64,000 nucleotides of DNA, taken from Escherichia phage HermannAdler_Bas98. The notes beneath the pieces were generated by a model. That model had not been told where the DNA came from. It made no database searches and saw nothing but the letters and a program-made list of their open reading frames with translations. Below, in pieces: positions 25,114-40,381 of the stretch. Within the stretch, counting starts at the first letter, position 1. The number at the start of each line of letters is the position of its first letter. The position numbers and the translations under genes were made by a program. The stretch is taken from sequence record PQ850608.1. The stretch is one strand, 5' to 3'.

Positions 25114-26091
25114 TTAAAAATACTCCATATCGGTAATATCACGGAAGCATTTATACAAAGCAGAGCGCGGCACGTCGACGATGCCAAAGTTAAAGAATTT
25201 ATACGTTAGGTATTTATCGCGATAGTTCTCGCGATTCTCCCAAAGCATTTTACGCTCTGCCATAGGCATTGAACCAGCGGAGACGCGGAAAGGAATCATT
25301 TCACCTTTCTCATCCACATATTTTGGATTGACGACTACGAATGAGCCAAGGTATCCTTTCGCAACTAAACCTTCAGCCTCTTTTGAACGCTTGGTGCGAC
25401 CCAATTCGTCAATGAATGCTTCGTTGTTGTTCTCCATCATCTCAACGAAGTCTATGATCAACCCTTCTTCATCGGTCCACGGCTTGTCCTTCCACACATC
25501 ACGTGACTTCGGCGTCGCGCGGCCATGCTTATATTTGCCCGTCCAAGACTTGCCATACAAGCCTTCATAGCCAAGCTGGTCTGCTTCGATTTGCATTGCC
25601 GCGTACTGGTCCATATTTTCGATGTTGCGATATTCGAGAGCGCGAAGGAATGGACGTCGGCCATGGTCAATGAGATGTTGATTGACCTCAGCAACACGTC
25701 GATTGTACTTCTCATAACGGGCCGAGAATGGCAAATCAGGTTCGCTAAAGTCATCAAACACCCACCATGTAAAGTTAGTGATTGCATCAGTGTTCATGCA
25801 TGCAGTATAGGCCTGTTGCATGACGTTCTTGTCATTTGGATTGCCGTCGATTAGCTCTCCATCAAGTCCGTGAATTAATTCACCCAAGAAGAGGAACTCT
25901 TTTTTGATTTGAATGTTGCGCAGCGCCATGCCGGACGTGCCCATTGGCAAGTTGTCATACGCCATTGCGCGTATGCCATCGACCTTGAATGACAATCCGC
26001 AAGGCAGCGGCACGTCTTCGCCGCGCTCGATTATTTGCTTACGCTGGCAACCCTTCATTGGTTTTAATGCTTTGATTTCTCCTGCCATCAC
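25114..26091 (-). CDS. ATP-dependent DNA ligase
   Basis: Motif I SFKVDGIRA (KxDG), plus LDGELI, EGLYGK and DVWKDKPW motifs in the canonical order. Confidence 0.85.
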   Translation of the reverse strand: MMAGEIKALKPMKGCQRKQIIERGEDVPLPCGLSFKVDGIRAMAYDNLPMGTSGMALRNIQIKKEFLFLGELIHGLDGELIDGNPNDKNVMQQAYTACMNTDAITNFTWWVFDDFSEPDLPFSARYEKYNRRVAEVNQHLIDHGRRPFLRALEYRNIENMDQYAAMQIEADQLGYEGLYGKSWTGKYKHGRATPKSRDVWKDKPWTDEEGLIIDFVEMMENNNEAFIDELGRTKRSKEAEGLVAKGYLGSFVVVNPKYVDEKGEMIPFRVSAGSMPMAERKMLWENRENYRDKYLTYKFFNFGIVDVPRSALYKCFRDITDMEYF

Positions 26092-26681
26092 TCAAACTCC
26101 TTATTCATCACTTGTTCCAGCGCATAGGCGTAATCCTGATCAGTCGATTTGATAAACGTGCCGTTGTACATGACGCCTTTGCGGTCTTTGATGTCTTCGT
26201 AGGCAGCTTGCGCACAGTCGGATAAGCGAAGGCCATAATCATGAGCTACGCCGGAAAGGTAATCGACTGCGGCCATGATGGTGACGTCAATATCCATGGT
26301 TTGATTCTTGGCAATAGCATCACCAAGTCGTCCAAGGGTCTTTGCCAGGCGAAGGATAAATGAATGAGGGTGAGCGCCTTTATCAGCGCAACCGCCGCCA
26401 TTAATGTTTTCGATTTCAGCACCGTTTTGCGCTGCCAGGATGGTCAACACAACAAGGCAATCGCCAATGTCGTCCTTAATTGCAGCTTGCAAGTCACAGA
26501 TGGCCTGCTCTGTATATCCAATTTCAGGGTCGAAGAACACAAGGTCATGGAGTTGATCAACGTGGTCGGTTAACTCCCCAAACTCGCTGATAAGCTTCGG
26601 GTATTGGTCCTTAAGGTCGCAACCTTGGATGATGTTACGGTCAGAAGCCCACTGGCGAATGTTTGCATAAATCTGTTTCAT
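26088..26681 (-). CDS. MazG-like nucleotide pyrophosphohydrolase
   Basis: All-alpha pattern with LISEFGELTDHV and DDIGDCLVVLTILA, typical of MazG/HisE-type NTP-PPases. Confidence 0.6.
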   Translation of the reverse strand: MKQIYANIRQWASDRNIIQGCDLKDQYPKLISEFGELTDHVDQLHDLVFFDPEIGYTEQAICDLQAAIKDDIGDCLVVLTILAAQNGAEIENINGGGCADKGAHPHSFILRLAKTLGRLGDAIAKNQTMDIDVTIMAAVDYLSGVAHDYGLRLSDCAQAAYEDIKDRKGVMYNGTFIKSTDQDYAYALEQVMNKEFE

Positions 26682-34445: not shown

Positions 34446-34472
34446 ACAAAAAGGCCGCCCATTAGGACGGCC
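34446..34472 (-). terminator. intrinsic terminator after the VOC gene
   Basis: Minus strand: GGCCGUCC-UAAU-GGGCGGCC followed by UUUUUG. Confidence 0.65.
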
Positions 34473-34488
34473 ACAGATTCACGATTCG

Positions 34489-35040
34489 TTATACAGTGTA
34501 CGGAGTACCTTCTTGATTCAAGCGCACGATAAACTTCAAATCAACGCCGATGATTTCACGCGTATCAAAGATCACATAGTTGTAACGACGTTGGCCAGCG
34601 ATGTTTGGGTTGGTGTGAGAATCAGTTACGACTTCCTGTGCAACCTGAATGCCTTCTTCGCTAAAGAACTTACGCCATTCAGCAAGTTCAGCAGCAGTCA
34701 CGTGCATACCAAGGTGGCTGACCTGATTATCGTGCGCATCGAGCATGTCGATGTTTTCATTAATCCAGTTGCAACCTTTTGTGTAGTCAAGGATTTCAAG
34801 CTCAAGAGGCTTACCAGCGCCGCCATCAGTACCGTTGCCAGCCTGATAGTTGAAGCGCAAGTCAGCTTCATTGGTGCAATCGCCGCGCTGACCTTTAAAG
34901 TCATCAGCTTCAAATACGCGACCAGTAGCAACAACGTGATCATGGAACCACTCTGTCAGGCCGATTTTAGCCAGGAAGTCCTGAGCGCGTTGAGCATCTG
35001 GAATGGACAGGGCGATTTGTTCAATTTTAAAATGTGGCAT
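34489..35040 (-). CDS. VOC/glyoxalase-fold protein
   Basis: Two beta-alpha-beta-like halves (IEQIALSIPDAQRAQDFLAKIGL and VSHLGMHVTAAELAEWRKFF) with ELEIL and DLKFIV, as in the glyoxalase/bleomycin-resistance/dioxygenase superfamily. Confidence 0.5.
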   Translation of the reverse strand: MPHFKIEQIALSIPDAQRAQDFLAKIGLTEWFHDHVVATGRVFEADDFKGQRGDCTNEADLRFNYQAGNGTDGGAGKPLELEILDYTKGCNWINENIDMLDAHDNQVSHLGMHVTAAELAEWRKFFSEEGIQVAQEVVTDSHTNPNIAGQRRYNYVIFDTREIIGVDLKFIVRLNQEGTPYTV

Positions 35041-35449: not shown

Positions 35450-36133
35450 TTATTTCCCAAATGGAATATCAGTACCAGACATAAAGCGCCATGCGCCCGT
35501 AATTAAGATATGGCGAATGAAGTCAGCAATTACTTGCGGCTCAGTCTCCAATCCATTCATCAATGCCTTTTTCTGGTATTCAGCGGCGTATTCAGGAGTC
35601 CATCCGCGAGTCGCGCAAACAGCATCTTCAATCTGTTTAGACATACCAGTGCCGCGCAACTTGTTAGGACTAATAGAGAATACCGTGATGCCGTATTTAG
35701 GCGTAAGCTCGTGAGCCATCTGCTTGCTAATCATAAGCGCAGCAGCCTTGGATGCATTATAACACAAGCTGGACGTCATAGGAATATGCGCAGCGTTAGA
35801 AACGATATTGATCACAAAACCTTTGTTGTCGATAAGACTTTTCAGCGCGGCCTGAGTCGTGTTGACGAAAGAGAAGGCGTTGGTGTGCATAACGCGATTG
35901 AACTCTTCGTAGTTAACATCTTCGAACCAGTTGTTGGAGTTGACGCCAGCGCAGTTGATCAAGCCTTCTACATCATATGGGCTTAAAATTTCTTTCATCT
36001 GTTTAGCGTCGCGGACGTCATATCCGTATGCTGAATCGATTCCAAGCACGTTATGACCGTAAGCGCCAAGGGTGTCAAAAATAGATTTACCAAGACCGGA
36101 ATTGGAACCTGTTACAACAATTACTTTTTTCAT
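35450..36133 (-). CDS. short-chain dehydrogenase/reductase (SDR)
   Basis: Cofactor motif VTGSNSGLGKS (TGxxxGxG) and catalytic YNASKAA (YxxxK). Confidence 0.85.
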   Translation of the reverse strand: MKKVIVVTGSNSGLGKSIFDTLGAYGHNVLGIDSAYGYDVRDAKQMKEILSPYDVEGLINCAGVNSNNWFEDVNYEEFNRVMHTNAFSFVNTTQAALKSLIDNKGFVINIVSNAAHIPMTSSLCYNASKAAALMISKQMAHELTPKYGITVFSISPNKLRGTGMSKQIEDAVCATRGWTPEYAAEYQKKALMNGLETEPQVIADFIRHILITGAWRFMSGTDIPFGK

Positions 36134-36198: not shown

Positions 36199-37074
36199 CT
36201 ATTTATTGAAATTAATATTATGGGTGTTAACAAGACGTTCACACATGGCGCTATAAACACCATCGTCGTGTATTGAGTCTTCGTGCTTCAGGCCGCTGAT
36301 TGCGAAGCGTGTAAGCTTGACAATCTTAAGCTCGAACAGATGCCACATGTGGTAGTCTTCCGGTGTCTTCAAAGTTACGCCATTAGGGAACAACACCTGC
36401 ATAACCTGACCTACCATCACAGCGTTATCGCCATAAACGGCATTGCGCTCACGGAAGGTCGCGGCCATCGCATCAAGAATATCAGCAGCGGTTGCTGGGG
36501 CTTGTTGTTCAACTTCAACAAGTTTAGTCTCTTCTTTCCCTGTTGCACTTGGATCAACTGCTAATTGTTGCACCACTTCACCTGCCTTGCAAAGATTAAA
36601 TGTAAAGGCGATTTTATTTTGCGCCATGGAATTATAGTGCAAAGCTTCTTCTTGCATCCGCGCGAGTACGTCTTGTCGGTCGTCGAATACATTGATGATT
36701 CGATAATCGCCGTGCCGCAAAGCGTGCGATAGCCATGCAGATTTCATAATAGTTGATGGACGTTTGTCGCCATAGTCTCTCATCTTGATTGTAAATTCAT
36801 CAAAAGGGAAAACATTGTCCAGACGTTCAAAAGTCACTTGTCTGTATTTTTCTGGCCTTGCAGTCCAATATTCAACCGCCTCACCGCGAAGAGATGCCGA
36901 CTCTACTGCTGATGCAATGTGAGGATAGAACTGATCATAACCAATACCGCTGTGATAGTCATCATAGTCTGACAACGGACCTGCCACCTTGATGCGGTCT
37001 AAGCGCCAACGGTCATCAAACAGCGTTCCGTCAAGGTCGAATACGTTTAAGATTTCGCTGTTTTTAATGCTCAT
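36199..37074 (-). CDS. HAD-family phosphatase fused to an all-alpha NTP-pyrophosphohydrolase-like domain
   Basis: N-terminal half has HAD motif I VFDLDGTLF and motif IV NVFDDRQDV. C-terminal half (FRERNAVYGDN ... KIVKLTRF ... HEDSIHDDGVYSAM) has the pattern of phage MazG-like/DUF1599-type domains. Confidence 0.55.
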   Translation of the reverse strand: MSIKNSEILNVFDLDGTLFDDRWRLDRIKVAGPLSDYDDYHSGIGYDQFYPHIASAVESASLRGEAVEYWTARPEKYRQVTFERLDNVFPFDEFTIKMRDYGDKRPSTIMKSAWLSHALRHGDYRIINVFDDRQDVLARMQEEALHYNSMAQNKIAFTFNLCKAGEVVQQLAVDPSATGKEETKLVEVEQQAPATAADILDAMAATFRERNAVYGDNAVMVGQVMQVLFPNGVTLKTPEDYHMWHLFELKIVKLTRFAISGLKHEDSIHDDGVYSAMCERLVNTHNINFNK

Positions 37075-37880
37075 CCTTTTGATACTCCATCTTTAGCAAC
37101 TGGATTGTTGGTGATTGGCATTGCACTCCAAAACTGGATGCGCAACTCTTCTTGCTGTGCCGTGGTATCCATCCAATCACGATACCAAGGGCAATGGGCT
37201 TTGCCATGACGAGGAAACGCGCATTTACCCATACCGATGCATTGCGGCTGTAATAGTGGATTTGCCCACGGGTGCACCTTGAGGACTTCCGCAACCATTG
37301 CGCGGAATACTTCTTGATACTCGCCTTGGGTGCGCGTGCACAAGCGGTTTGACGCCATCTGCTGCAGCGTGCGCAAGTTGAACTTTGCCATGATATGCGT
37401 TTGCATATTAGAAGGCAACACGGCACGTGCATCTTGAATCTCTGCGCCAGCCGCGCGAAGCTCTTGGTATAGAGCGTCAATCGTGGCCATCGCATCATCC
37501 CACTTCTCTGCCAATGAGTGATTTCTTATGTGCACATCATCAAATGCATTTTCATCATTGCAGTCAAAAGGGTGCTCGAATGCCTTCGGACGAATCGCAT
37601 CAAATGCAGACGACTCCTGAGCGCGGCTGGTGCGTTCTTGATATGCGCCTGTGCGTGTGCGTACCATCTGATGGGTCATGTTCTTTGATACAGCTGTGAT
37701 ATCAAAGATATAGTCCACAAAGTCAAAAGGAGACCTGATTGTATCAAGCATGTAGCGCCAGTGCTCTTGCTTCTCTGATTCTGTCATCTCAGAGACTGGC
37801 TTACCAGTCATGCGCGTGTTCTTTGTTTCCAGCAAAAGGTCAAGTGCATCTTGGGTGTATCGAATTAATTCAACTTTCAT
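37071..37880 (-). CDS. thyX: flavin-dependent thymidylate synthase-like protein (divergent ThyX)
   Basis: Alignable by eye to ThyX: QMVRTRTGAYQERTSRA against the canonical QWFRHRIASYNELSGRY, and ARAVLPSNMQTHIMAKFNLRTLQQMASNRL against [29 protein letters not shown]. Extra Cys/His-rich C-terminus. Confidence 0.7.
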   Translation of the reverse strand: MKVELIRYTQDALDLLLETKNTRMTGKPVSEMTESEKQEHWRYMLDTIRSPFDFVDYIFDITAVSKNMTHQMVRTRTGAYQERTSRAQESSAFDAIRPKAFEHPFDCNDENAFDDVHIRNHSLAEKWDDAMATIDALYQELRAAGAEIQDARAVLPSNMQTHIMAKFNLRTLQQMASNRLCTRTQGEYQEVFRAMVAEVLKVHPWANPLLQPQCIGMGKCAFPRHGKAHCPWYRDWMDTTAQQEELRIQFWSAMPITNNPVAKDGVSKG

Positions 37881-37893
37881 TTTAATTATCCTA

Positions 37894-38340
37894 TTAACGG
37901 TAATTCACTAGTTGCTGATCACCAGAGAAGGTGCAATGATAAACGAATTGTGCGTTATAAAGCAACTGAAAACTTTTCTTTGGTTCATTATTAGAACTCA
38001 TTGATGTAAAGATTTCTGCACCAGAACGGTTTTCACCAATCAGGTTAATAAAGTCGCCAGTTGAACGAGGCTGAACGAAAGTGAAACGCTGCATCCACGG
38101 AGTCCGGTTGGCACCTTTTCCGGTGAATCCCTGAATCTGAATATTCAGACCTTCTTGCTCGTTCACACCGATGTAAGTGGTAATTGTTGCGCCAGTCGTC
38201 GCTGCAGTCTTGCCGTCCATCGCTTCGCAATCGTAAACAGCGATTGAATCGGAAGTACGGACAGCGGCTTCAGTCGCTTCCATATACATGGTTCCGAGAA
38301 TAGCAGTTGCGGCAAGCGCGATTCCAGTGATGCGTTTCAT
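37894..38340 (-). CDS. secreted protein, function unknown
   Basis: Signal-peptide-like N-terminus MKRITGIALAATAILGTMYMEATEA. 148 aa. Confidence 0.5.
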   Translation of the reverse strand: MKRITGIALAATAILGTMYMEATEAAVRTSDSIAVYDCEAMDGKTAATTGATITTYIGVNEQEGLNIQIQGFTGKGANRTPWMQRFTFVQPRSTGDFINLIGENRSGAEIFTSMSSNNEPKKSFQLLYNAQFVYHCTFSGDQQLVNYR

Positions 38341-38405: not shown

Positions 38406-39401
38406 TTATTTATTAGCAATATAAGCAAATTTTTGATAGTTATTTGCTTTGATGAGTTTTTCAACTTCAGCAAGGTCATGAGCGACGTCATCAAGCAAAA
38501 TGTTTCGCCAAGTAGCGAATCGACCGACACTAAATACGTTCAAATCCATGGTCAGTTGCAGGAGTAGAGCGTGTCGCAAGTCTTTCGGAATGTCGACAAT
38601 CTTGCCATACTTCTGGTCGACCTTTTCAACTTCTTCGAGAGCGATGTCACTCCATGATAGGCCAAAGGCTGTCAATACTTCGTCAACTTCTGCACGCAAC
38701 TTAATGTCACGGTAACGAGTAATGCCGCCAGCGGCTTCAACTGCGGCTTCACTTACGCTAACCAAAGGAATTGTTTCGATGATCAGCGTGTCACCAGTGA
38801 TTGATGCGCGGTAAGTTCTGACGGAGTAGTCAGGGAAGTAAATTGTCTGATACAACTCACACTTACGTTTAATCTTAAAGCGGTAAACACGAATGTTTGC
38901 TTTATCAAATGAAAAATCAAGCTTTTGATCAATCCCAGCCAGCTTCATCATAACTGGCAGCGGCGACGTGTTGATGATTGGCGTCTCGCTATAGCCGCAA
39001 AGAGTATCAACAGGAGTATTAAAGAATATGCGGTCGCCCAGTTTGTCGACAAGCTGATCATAAAAGTCATCAGGCGCAATATAACGCGTTGCAGTTTTAA
39101 GCTTCATGATTGAACGGCTGCCAAACTGATTGGTGACCTTCATGGAATACATATTGGCAAGGTTGATTGGACAATGGTCGTGGTAGTAGTTGCCGCGAAA
39201 ATACACAGCCTTGTCAACTGTCACGGCCTTAAAAGGGATTCCGGTAATACGGCTTACTTCTTCGCCGCGAAAGCGTAGCAGTGCCTTGTGCTGTGGCGCT
39301 CGCTCCCCTGCTTCGTACACAATAGAGTTCGGGAAGTGACACGCGGTGATAAGTCCTGCCAAACCGCCGCCGATAATCATTACAGGTTGTTTCATGTTCA
39401 T
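38406..39401 (-). CDS. FAD/NAD(P)-binding oxidoreductase
   Basis: N-terminal Rossmann motif VMIIGGGLAGLITA. C-terminal VGRFATWRNILLDDV resembles the tail of UDP-galactopyranose mutase/amine-oxidase-type flavoproteins. Confidence 0.55.
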   Translation of the reverse strand: MNMKQPVMIIGGGLAGLITACHFPNSIVYEAGERAPQHKALLRFRGEEVSRITGIPFKAVTVDKAVYFRGNYYHDHCPINLANMYSMKVTNQFGSRSIMKLKTATRYIAPDDFYDQLVDKLGDRIFFNTPVDTLCGYSETPIINTSPLPVMMKLAGIDQKLDFSFDKANIRVYRFKIKRKCELYQTIYFPDYSVRTYRASITGDTLIIETIPLVSVSEAAVEAAGGITRYRDIKLRAEVDEVLTAFGLSWSDIALEEVEKVDQKYGKIVDIPKDLRHALLLQLTMDLNVFSVGRFATWRNILLDDVAHDLAEVEKLIKANNYQKFAYIANK

Positions 39402-39425: not shown

Positions 39426-39454
39426 AGTATAATAGCTAAATTATTTTACAGCAA
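39426..39454 (-). promoter_or_regulatory. sigma70-type promoter for the oxidoreductase operon
   Basis: Minus strand: TTGCTG, 17-bp spacer, TATACT. Confidence 0.55.
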
Positions 39455-39480
39455 CAAGTCATTTCTATTTAGTACAGACG

Positions 39481-39507
39481 AAAAAAGACCCACAACAAGT
39501 GTGGGTC
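39481..39507 (-). terminator. intrinsic terminator after the K/A/E-rich protein gene
   Basis: Minus strand: GACCCACA-cttgt-TGTGGGTC followed by TTTTTT. Confidence 0.75.
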
Positions 39508-39535: not shown

Positions 39536-40381
39536 TTATTCCGCTTGATCACCGTCTTCGGCATCGTCGTTGGATTCAACATCGACAAACTCGATGTGGC
39601 CCATCTCTTCCAGCTTGCTCAGGTAGGAGCGAACGGAAGCGCCAAACAGCTGATCTTTAACTTTCTCGCCCAGCTCATCGATAGACTGCGCCACGCCAAC
39701 TTCGCCTTCTTTGATCGCCGCCAGAACGCGCCCACGGGTGGAGTGCTCCTGCGGCTGGCTCAGGCCGTTGCCAGTGTAGATGAAGTGAGTAGCTTTTGCA
39801 CGGCGCTGACCGTTTGCCTTTTTGGCAGCCTTGCGCTCTGCGATGGCTTTGCGACGTTCTTCAGCTTCTTTCTTACGCTGTTCTTTTTGCTGTTCTGCAG
39901 CTTCTTTCGCCGCGATCTTAGCAGCTTCACGCTCTGCCTTGCGTTTCGCTTTCGCTTCTTCTTTAGCCTTCTCTTTTTCGGCCTTTGCTGCAGCACGGGC
40001 TTGATCACGCTCTGCTTTCTTAGCAGCAGCTTGTTCAGCTTTCAGGCGCTTGGCTTCTTCTTTGGCCTTTGCCTTTTCGATTTCTTTTGCTGCTTTAGCG
40101 GCTTCACGCTCTGCTTTCTTAGCAGCAGCCTTTTCTGCACGCTCTTTAGCTTTCTTAGCTGCTTCTTCAGCACGCTTCTGAGCCTTCTCATCAGCAGCCT
40201 GTTTGCGCTTCAGCGCGGCTTCTTCACGCTTGGCTTGTTTTTCCTGCTCACGCTTCTGGCGTTTTTCTTCGGCTTCTTTCTTTTTAGCCAGGCGTTTTTC
40301 TTCAGCCACGCGACGACGTTCTGCTGCGGCTGCTTGTTTTTCTTCTTTAGATAATACTTTGATTGCTTCGGCCATATTCAC
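39536..40381 (-). CDS. K/A/E/R-rich charged-helix protein with globular C-terminal domain and acidic tail
   Basis: About 190 aa of near-continuous KAAEK/EEAKR low-complexity sequence, then about 80 aa of ordinary sequence ending DDAEDGDQAE. Own promoter and terminator. Confidence 0.6.
   Translation of the reverse strand: MNMAEAIKVLSKEEKQAAAAERRRVAEEKRLAKKKEAEEKRQKREQEKQAKREEAALKRKQAADEKAQKRAEEAAKKAKERAEKAAAKKAEREAAKAAKEIEKAKAKEEAKRLKAEQAAAKKAERDQARAAAKAEKEKAKEEAKAKRKAEREAAKIAAKEAAEQQKEQRKKEAEERRKAIAERKAAKKANGQRRAKATHFIYTGNGLSQPQEHSTRGRVLAAIKEGEVGVAQSIDELGEKVKDQLFGASVRSYLSKLEEMGHIEFVDVESNDDAEDGDQAE

Follow-up and report, generated by a model that had tools for sequence, protein, structure and literature searches.

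The 64,000-nucleotide stretch of DNA of Escherichia phage HermannAdler_Bas98 analysed here (PQ850608.1; hereafter the window) contains a gene of the thymidylate synthase ThyX family, set among several other putative enzyme genes (Table 1). The phage is a Wifcevirus coliphage: other Wifcevirus myophages, including Escherichia phage ManiWeber_Bas99, are 96-98% identical to the window, and in these relatives the open reading frame (ORF) is annotated as thymidylate synthase. It begins with ATG, with an AGGA Shine-Dalgarno sequence 8 nt 5' of the start. An earlier note on this DNA had called the product a ThyX homolog, and the ORF is indeed present with the expected family and fold: Pfam Thy1 (PF02511) matches residues 5-205 (E=1.7e-29, 103.4 bits versus a cut-off of 24.8), PHROG_85 'thymidylate synthase' matches at 1.5e-37, and an AlphaFold (AF2) model made with 25 homologs as input (pLDDT 81) has as its best Foldseek matches the Thermotoga maritima (Tm) ThyX structures 1o26/1o27 (E ~4e-10, TM 0.6-0.75). 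The two peptides quoted in that note, RTRTGAYQERTSRA and CIGMGKCAFPRHGKAHC (37191-37241), are exact in the translation. The ThyX-like protein has the ThyX fold, belongs to the Thy1/ThyX superfamily and represents a distinct phage-borne subfamily.

Correspondences with Tm ThyX were taken from a HMMER pairwise alignment, a MAFFT alignment with 120 homologs and an alignment with outgroups, all of which agree (the central 150 residues and the numbering of the Tm reference were confirmed by HMMER alignments to mutant chains such as H53A and by PDB mutant names). Within the signature segment RTRTGAYQERTSRA, R74-T75-R76 correspond to Tm R78-H79-R80, A79 to S83, T84 to S88, R86 to R90 and A87 to Y91; H79 is replaced by Thr, S83 by Ala, S88 by Thr and Y91 by Ala, while R78, R80, E86 and R90 are unchanged. 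The ThyX motif RHRx7S is present only in altered form (R74-T75-R76 ... T84), with Thr for His and Thr for Ser. The earlier note had named three of these substitutions correctly (His to Thr, Ser to Ala, Tyr to Ala), but its list was incomplete, having overlooked Ser88 to Thr, His53 to Ile (Ile48 in the phage protein) and His178 to Arg (Arg183). Ulmer is said to have assigned His53 and Tyr91 to an extended ThyX motif in 2008, and the phage protein has Ile48 and Ala87 in these two places.

In the Tm enzyme, polarisation of the uracil is the task of R90 and R174, while the phosphate and sugar are held by R78, R147 and Q75. His53, His79, Ser83 and Tyr91 belong to the opposite part of the active site, that of the flavin, folate/NADPH and lid, where His53 stacks on the folate or NADPH ring above the flavin, His79 touches a phosphate of flavin adenine dinucleotide (FAD) and Tyr91 lies in the lid. 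The residues that bind deoxyuridine monophosphate (dUMP), Tm Q75, R78, R90, R147 and R174, correspond to Q71, R74, R86, R152 and R179, all invariant, and none of the arginines that bind the FAD phosphates has been lost either. By these alignments, the nucleotide side of the active site is intact and the cofactor side altered. A different pyrimidine substrate, as suggested in the earlier note, is therefore unlikely, since the residues that hold or polarise dUMP are all kept, S88 as Thr or Ser. What may set the enzyme apart is the fate of its one-carbon unit or the manner in which its flavin is reduced or loaded.

A search of 5.8 billion proteins returned 613 homologs, the best 120 of which (to ~53% identity) were aligned; these come mostly from contigs of ~66-74 kb and include the Pbunavirus-like phages Wifcevirus, Serratia Myosmarvirus, Pantoea Kyle and Burkholderia WTB. 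No variation is seen among the 121 close sequences at I48, R74, T75, R76, R86, A87, R152, R179, R183 and four cysteines, nor at the counterparts of Tm Q75 and R165, and the Tm N163 position is kept in 111/121. The invariance of I48, T75 and A87 indicates a protein under selection, not one that is decaying. When 1.84 billion cluster representatives were scanned more widely with HMMER, 1582 matched at E<1e-3, and of these 129 full-length representatives were aligned with phage outgroups and Tm ThyX (140 sequences in all). In this alignment the Tm His53 column contains I in 94 sequences, L in 19, V in 8 and H in 11; the His79 column contains T (77), H (28), Q (13), S (8) and N (6); and the Tyr91 column contains V (44), A (20), T (18), F (17), I (13) and Y (13). 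His53 and Tyr91 are both present in 11 sequences and both absent from 123, with only 2 mixed cases (Fisher p 3e-14, for sequences that are phylogenetically non-independent). Each of Tm Q75, R78, R80, R90, R147, R165 and R174 persists in 133-138 of the 140, and N163 in 108. The I53-type subfamily, to which the phage protein belongs, is present in more than 1000 viral contigs. The substitutions have been fixed by selection and mark a large phage subfamily with coupled loss of His53 and Tyr91.

The C-terminus of the protein is ~44 residues longer than that of Tm ThyX, close to the ~45 extra residues reported in the earlier note. This tail contains the motif C-x5-C-x9-C (C214, C220 and C230), and a fourth cysteine, C181, lies two residues past R179. 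All four are invariant in 121/121 close homologs, but H225 and H229 are found in only 78/121 and 74/121, so that the proposal of a Cys/His-rich metal-binding tail holds for the cysteines and fails for the histidines. Among the representatives the complete set occurs in 72, none of it in 60 and part of it in 4, and since the protein is cytoplasmic, a set that is inherited whole or not at all suggests that the cysteines share one metal site. The four cysteines probably form a structural metal site, Zn and Fe-S being indistinguishable from sequence. Mycobacteriophages Troll4 and Aikoy carry the same set, and canonical viral ThyX with His53, RHR and Tyr91 have four cysteines in 77/80 control loci (C187, C220, C226 and C234 invariant, alignment A5). 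The site would therefore predate the active-site changes, have no bearing on any altered chemistry, and be widespread in the ThyX family. The canonical four-Cys viral ThyX (L176-L255, IMG/VR) are mostly on contigs of 80-270 kb. No solved ThyX structure extends over the tail segment, and its solved-structure matches, to triosephosphate isomerase only, were dismissed as chance matches.

Upstream of the ThyX-like gene is a gene for a predicted flavoprotein of the fold shared by UDP-galactopyranose mutase (UGM), protoporphyrinogen oxidase (PPO) and amine oxidases. Conservation of this partner was surveyed in 160 IMG/VR loci, drawn from two alignments of distant subfamily members (a Cys-less type and a four-Cys type). 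A partner homolog (25-46% identical) is encoded upstream on the same strand in 156/160 loci, and the gap between the two genes has a median of 65 bp; the other loci are too short on that side, three of them having 66-169 nt and one ~1.6 kb. The synteny of I53-type ThyX with a constant UGM/PPO-like flavoprotein partner is fixed. Downstream, a HAD protein is encoded in 115/143 loci, a short-chain dehydrogenase/reductase (SDR) in 39/112 and a VOC-like protein in 31/112; SDR and VOC-like genes occur together in 45 loci, SDR alone in 15 and VOC-like alone in 1. De novo clustering of neighbour ORFs gave the same picture; an S-adenosylmethionine methyltransferase occurs in 25 loci, and dUTPase, dCMP deaminase and reductase are absent from the recurrent set. 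A fusion of the ThyX-like domain with the partner, of the Rosetta-stone kind, was sought and rejected: the long homologs carry inteins (inside the ThyX-like genes of P0166, P0158 and P0253), a GIY-YIG-like endonuclease or unrelated N-termini, and P0209 looks like a mis-called chimera. The N-terminal extension of homolog P0165 is GIY-YIG-like.

All 89 loci long enough to show a polymerase have the same one, which means that the metagenomic set is one broad lineage and that its synteny is possibly in part inherited rather than selected. Several findings run counter to pure inheritance. Genes farther upstream differ between loci, and the cultured-phage records with the partner (361) and with the long-form ThyX-like gene (356) extend to a Cronobacter podophage, a Ralstonia phage of 40 kb and the Rhizobium TM30 group (207 kb). 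TM30, with a different replication apparatus, has partner, ThyX-like and HAD genes within 7.5 kb (the partner annotated 'polysaccharide deacetylase' and the HAD protein 'phosphoheptose isomerase'), and its ThyX-like gene is 3 kb from dUTPase and ribonucleotide reductase genes, i.e. beside a source of dUMP. Actinophages with L53/Q79/F91 ThyX variants are not among these cultured-phage records. Taken by itself, the altered motif is nothing unusual within this clade; the clade itself is a ThyX variant with a constant flavoprotein partner.

The partner family has ~1900 members with a predicted FAD fold. The phage protein matches no Pfam or NCBIfam family, including GLF and Amino_oxidase, is shorter than the UGM, PPO and amine oxidase flavoproteins (331 versus ~365-510 residues) and is only 10-17% identical to them. 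GenBank names for the family include UDP-galactopyranose mutase in some records and polysaccharide deacetylase in one. The protein encoded between the partner and the ThyX-like protein has no family match in Pfam, PHROG and NCBIfam scans and no homolog in the 160 related loci. The HAD phosphatase gene begins within the end of the ThyX-like gene, the overlap at the stop codon being 4 nt. Its C-terminal domain (~100 residues, ~190-291; weak DUF6378 match only) is always fused to or adjoining a HAD phosphatase (also at L003 7225-7455 and L002 5747-5959), is 48% identical between the coliphage and the Rhizobium jumbo phage, and has the same architecture in TM30 gp205.

Two terminator-like hairpins bracket exactly the six genes from the flavoprotein to the VOC-like protein, suggesting a separate transcription unit in the replication region; the co-directional block is followed by exonuclease and DNA polymerase genes, and so lies in the replication module. 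By Pfam, PHROG and NCBIfam scans, the block holds all recognisable small-molecule enzymes of the window besides a MazG-like protein, and no ThyA-like gene was found in the window. The MazG-like pyrophosphatase (26088-26681, minus strand), the C-terminal part of which matches PHROGs annotated as DNA-binding protein, could shape the deoxynucleoside triphosphate pool, e.g. by excluding dUTP or dTTP. On the other side of the block, a 281-residue protein (39536-40381, minus strand) that is very rich in Lys, Glu and Ala is annotated TolA-like and has a conserved C-terminal domain (phrog_4765); it corresponds to Pbunavirus ORF66.

Table 1. Features of the ThyX-like gene and of the surrounding gene block in the window
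Feature	Position	Strand	Basis or remark
Terminator-like hairpin, 8-bp stem and T-run, just upstream of block	39487..39507	-	consensus scan only
Promoter-like site following the upstream hairpin	39440-39467		consensus scan only
331-aa flavoprotein, predicted UGM/PPO/amine-oxidase fold, upstream partner	38406..39401	-	GxGxxG at residues 11-16
148-aa protein, signal-peptide-like N-terminus, between partner and ThyX-like genes	37894..38340	-	Wifcevirus-specific
ThyX-like gene, I53-type phage subfamily	37071..37880	-	269 aa; Pfam Thy1, AF2 model, Foldseek
Ile48 codon, aligned with Tm His53	37737..37739	-	invariant in 121 homologs
Altered signature RTRTGAYQERTSRA, residues 74-87	37620..37661	-	alignments and translation
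C181 codon, fourth member of Cys set	37338-37340	-	alignments
C-terminal extension past Thy1 domain, residues 206-269	37074..37265	-	carries C214, C220, C230
HAD phosphatase (PNKP-type, DLDGT motif) with all-alpha C-terminal domain	36199..37074	-	Pfam HAD_PNKP 5.9e-8; phrog_4889
Short-chain dehydrogenase/reductase (SDR), accessory	35450..36133	-	Pfam adh_short 2.6e-31; phrog_3142; TGxxxGxG, YxxxK present
183-aa VOC/glyoxalase-like protein, accessory	34489..35040	-	Pfam Glyoxalase_4 E=0.0066, below cut-off
Terminator-like hairpin right after VOC-like gene, 8-bp stem with 7 GC pairs, T-run	34453..34472	-	consensus scan only

The related Pbunavirus phages F8 and 14-1 are relevant to the function of these genes. 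According to a 2025 preprint, their DNA resists enzymes with TG-containing sites, and about one quarter of T in their virion DNA gives way to nucleosides with masses of 362 and 390, interpreted respectively as a derivative of a tetrose sugar alcohol and as a cyclised derivative of an aldopentose; the authors stressed that F8 and 14-1 are without genes previously tied to DNA modification (PMC12191111). By our own arithmetic these masses equal 5-hydroxymethyl-deoxyuridine (5-hmdU) plus tetritol or pentose minus water, and isomeric C-linked structures fit equally. Between F8 and 14-1, ThyX is 94% and the partner 97% identical; identity is 77-89% in the small genes near thyX and the HAD gene (ORF57-63), with flanks at 94-99%; and ORF70 is 57% identical, with neighbours at 91-99.6%. 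ORF70 and the ORF57-63 region are possible candidates for the determinants of the two thymidine adducts. As evidence bearing on ThyX, ORF70 was set aside, being of coiled-coil/Zn-ribbon appearance, absent from Wifcevirus and uninformative. Site counts in the window (observed/expected) are 0/18 for XbaI (TCTAGA), 3/18 for EcoRV, 55/18 for HindIII and 18/18 for EcoRI; TA is under-represented (0.69) and 26% of T precede G. Restriction-site counts were considered as the cause of the restriction phenotype reported for Wifcevirus and rejected, the 18 EcoRI sites in the window being at chance level.

The reading favoured here, tentatively and a little short of being called probable, is that the ThyX-like enzyme is a dUMP C5 one-carbon transferase with thymidine monophosphate (dTMP) for phage DNA as its product. 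The protein would bind FAD and dUMP as a homotetramer, and the one-carbon unit would pass from methylene-tetrahydrofolate to flavin N5 and on to C5 of dUMP, where the flavin would reduce the exocyclic methylene to give dTMP for phage DNA synthesis. Loss of His53, His79 and Tyr91 would represent altered flavin reduction or loading, taken over by or shared with the co-encoded flavoprotein, and the four cysteines would hold a structural metal (Zn or Fe-S), clamping the tail to the helix of R179 and R183 (Tm R174 and H178). This reading is favoured because of the nucleotide-binding residues, the lack of a ThyA-like gene in the window, the position in a replication module, the dUTPase and ribonucleotide reductase neighbourhood in TM30, parsimony, and the inteins, which are usual in essential replication or nucleotide enzymes. 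The protein resembles canonical ThyX, or flavin-dependent thymidylate synthase (T. maritima TM0449, M. tuberculosis ThyX, PBCV-1 A674R), whose genes are both viral and cellular, in its Thy1 fold, its predicted FAD and dUMP binding, and the positions of Q75, R78, R80, R90, R147, N163, R165 and R174; it differs from them in the substitutions at His53, His79, Ser83, Tyr91 and His178, in its longer four-Cys tail, in its flavoprotein partner and in its score against the NCBIfam thyX equivalog TIGR02170 (78.1 bits, below the cut-off of 87.9). That score counts against plain thymidylate synthase activity, as do several other observations. The best PDB ThyX match reaches only E ~4e-4, whereas canonical viral ThyX reach 1e-32. 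The partner is directly upstream in 146 of the 147 loci that have at least 1.2 kb of upstream sequence, and was found in 0/80 canonical viral ThyX loci by a partner-family hidden Markov model that recovered 155/160 of the positive loci; a plain thymidylate synthase needs no partner, yet the partner is fixed upstream and a phosphatase follows. The possibility, raised in the earlier note, that the substitutions are common in active ThyX clades stands insofar as they are the rule throughout a large phage clade, but for the activity of that clade a literature search found no assay of any I53-type member. Finally, the related Pbunavirus bears hypermodified thymidine for which the genes are unassigned (PMC12191111). 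The partner flavoprotein, the phosphatase and the Pbunavirus modification together make non-standard chemistry more likely than one would judge from the motif by itself.

A serious but less probable alternative is that the enzyme catalyses the first step of a thymidine hypermodification encoded by the module: the flavin would deliver the methylene to dUMP C5 in the manner of ThyX, but the exocyclic methylene would then escape reduction, reacting with water or with the hydroxyl of a sugar and giving 5-hydroxymethyl-dUMP or a 5-(sugar-oxymethyl) nucleotide and, from it, the sugar-type modified thymidine of Pbunavirus. It is consistent with the joint loss of His53 and Tyr91, the obligatory and subfamily-specific partner with its phosphatase, the optional sugar-type tailoring enzymes, the hairpins that bracket the module, the co-travel of three genes in a jumbo phage of Rhizobium whose replication apparatus differs, and the lack of any other candidate enzyme in these small genomes, the MazG-like protein aside. 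To our knowledge, no ThyX-fold enzyme occupies the role of the ThyA-family phage pyrimidine modifiers. The latter (dUMP/dCMP hydroxymethylases and the RB69/DLP3 5-hydroxy-dCMP synthase, which serves arabinosylation; 2026, PMC13326640) would have the same possible role, being thymidylate-synthase homologs in phage replication modules with products that seed sugar-type DNA hypermodification, and so show that such homologs can acquire new products, but they have an unrelated fold and the classical flavin-independent mechanism, though the RB69 enzyme binds flavin. The exocyclic-methylene intermediate of ThyX and its capture by nucleophiles in related chemistry have been described by the Weigele group (PMC8989533). 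The RNA uracil C5 modifiers MnmEG and TrmFO likewise relay a methylene as the flavin N5-iminium, and for MnmEG its proposed fate is capture by a nucleophile and not reduction, the chemistry that hypermodification would need, although these enzymes have different folds and polynucleotide substrates. The Pbunavirus data cut both ways. Modified thymidine is demonstrated in F8 and 14-1, with masses that fit 5-hmdU plus tetritol or pentose minus water (PMC12191111), and the genes around thyX diverge more than their flanks, but ThyX and the partner are nearly the same in the two phages despite the different adducts. The modification occurs only at TG, leaving ~75% ordinary T, and would require a sequence-specific step at the DNA level; a product made in the nucleotide pool fits this pattern poorly unless 5-hydroxymethyluracil (5-hmU) fully replaces T and is then partly reduced. 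No glycosyltransferase, 5-hmU DNA kinase or aGPT-Pplase was detected by Pfam, PHROG and NCBIfam scans of the module and 20 other ORFs; the ThyA-type hydroxymethylase and other transferases of the 5-hmdU-derived systems (Lee et al. 2018/2021) were likewise not found here, and a literature search found no paper tying a ThyX-fold enzyme to DNA hypermodification. For Wifcevirus and the more than 1000 subfamily contigs, hypermodification would be an extrapolation from Pbunavirus. That the missing module for the sugar-type thymidine hypermodification of Pbunavirus consists of I53-type ThyX together with its UGM/PPO-like partner and the HAD phosphatase, SDR and VOC-like proteins being optional, is a real possibility but less likely than not.

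The TG specificity would be accounted for if the ThyX-like protein or its partner acted on thymine in DNA, reversing the last ThyX step: the flavin would abstract a methyl hydride, and the electrophilic methylene would be trapped by a sugar at TG sites. This is the microscopic reverse of a known step, and loss of the Tyr91 lid could admit a polynucleotide; but no DNA-binding domain was found, the arginines that bind the dUMP 5'-phosphate are fully kept, and ThyX active sites are buried at tetramer interfaces, all of which makes action on DNA improbable. Methylation of another nucleotide, such as UMP or dCMP, is an equally faint prospect. Its precedent is the polyoxin UMP C5-methylase PolB (PDB 4p5a), which has the Thy1 fold and a non-canonical output, showing that the family can be repurposed and its sugar specificity switched, and the lost Tyr91 lies near the 3'-OH and lid region. 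PolB retains the RHR motif. It is, however, the weakest solved ThyX match to the phage protein (E=0.86), which is not of the PolB type, and it sits in a nucleoside-antibiotic gene cluster, whereas the context here is a DNA replication module; the invariant counterparts of the uracil-polarising R90 and R174 argue against cytosine. Least probable is a catalytically dead relic with a structural or regulatory role: the lost His of the RHR motif and the score under the equivalog cut-off would fit it, but substrate and cofactor residues are strongly conserved over more than 600 homologs and 1582 representative clusters.

For annotation, Ile53, the absence of Tyr91 and the upstream partner gene are a signature that separates this subfamily from ordinary ThyX. 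If the favoured dTMP reading is correct, His53, His79 and Tyr91 would be dispensable though long counted in the ThyX motif, and the four-Cys metal site and the need of a large part of the family for a second flavoprotein would have to be explained. The I53-type ThyX module is also the best available gene-level lead for the newly reported modification in Pbunavirus, which with its relatives is among the phages most used in therapy, and it provides a candidate list of ThyX-like gene, flavoprotein partner and phosphatase. Should the module prove to serve hypermodification, this would be the first ThyX-family enzyme dedicated to that purpose, its flavin-borne methylene or exocyclic-methylene intermediate diverted to an O or C nucleophile, and modified DNA would be predicted in Wifcevirus and in more than 1000 uncultured phages that bear the module.

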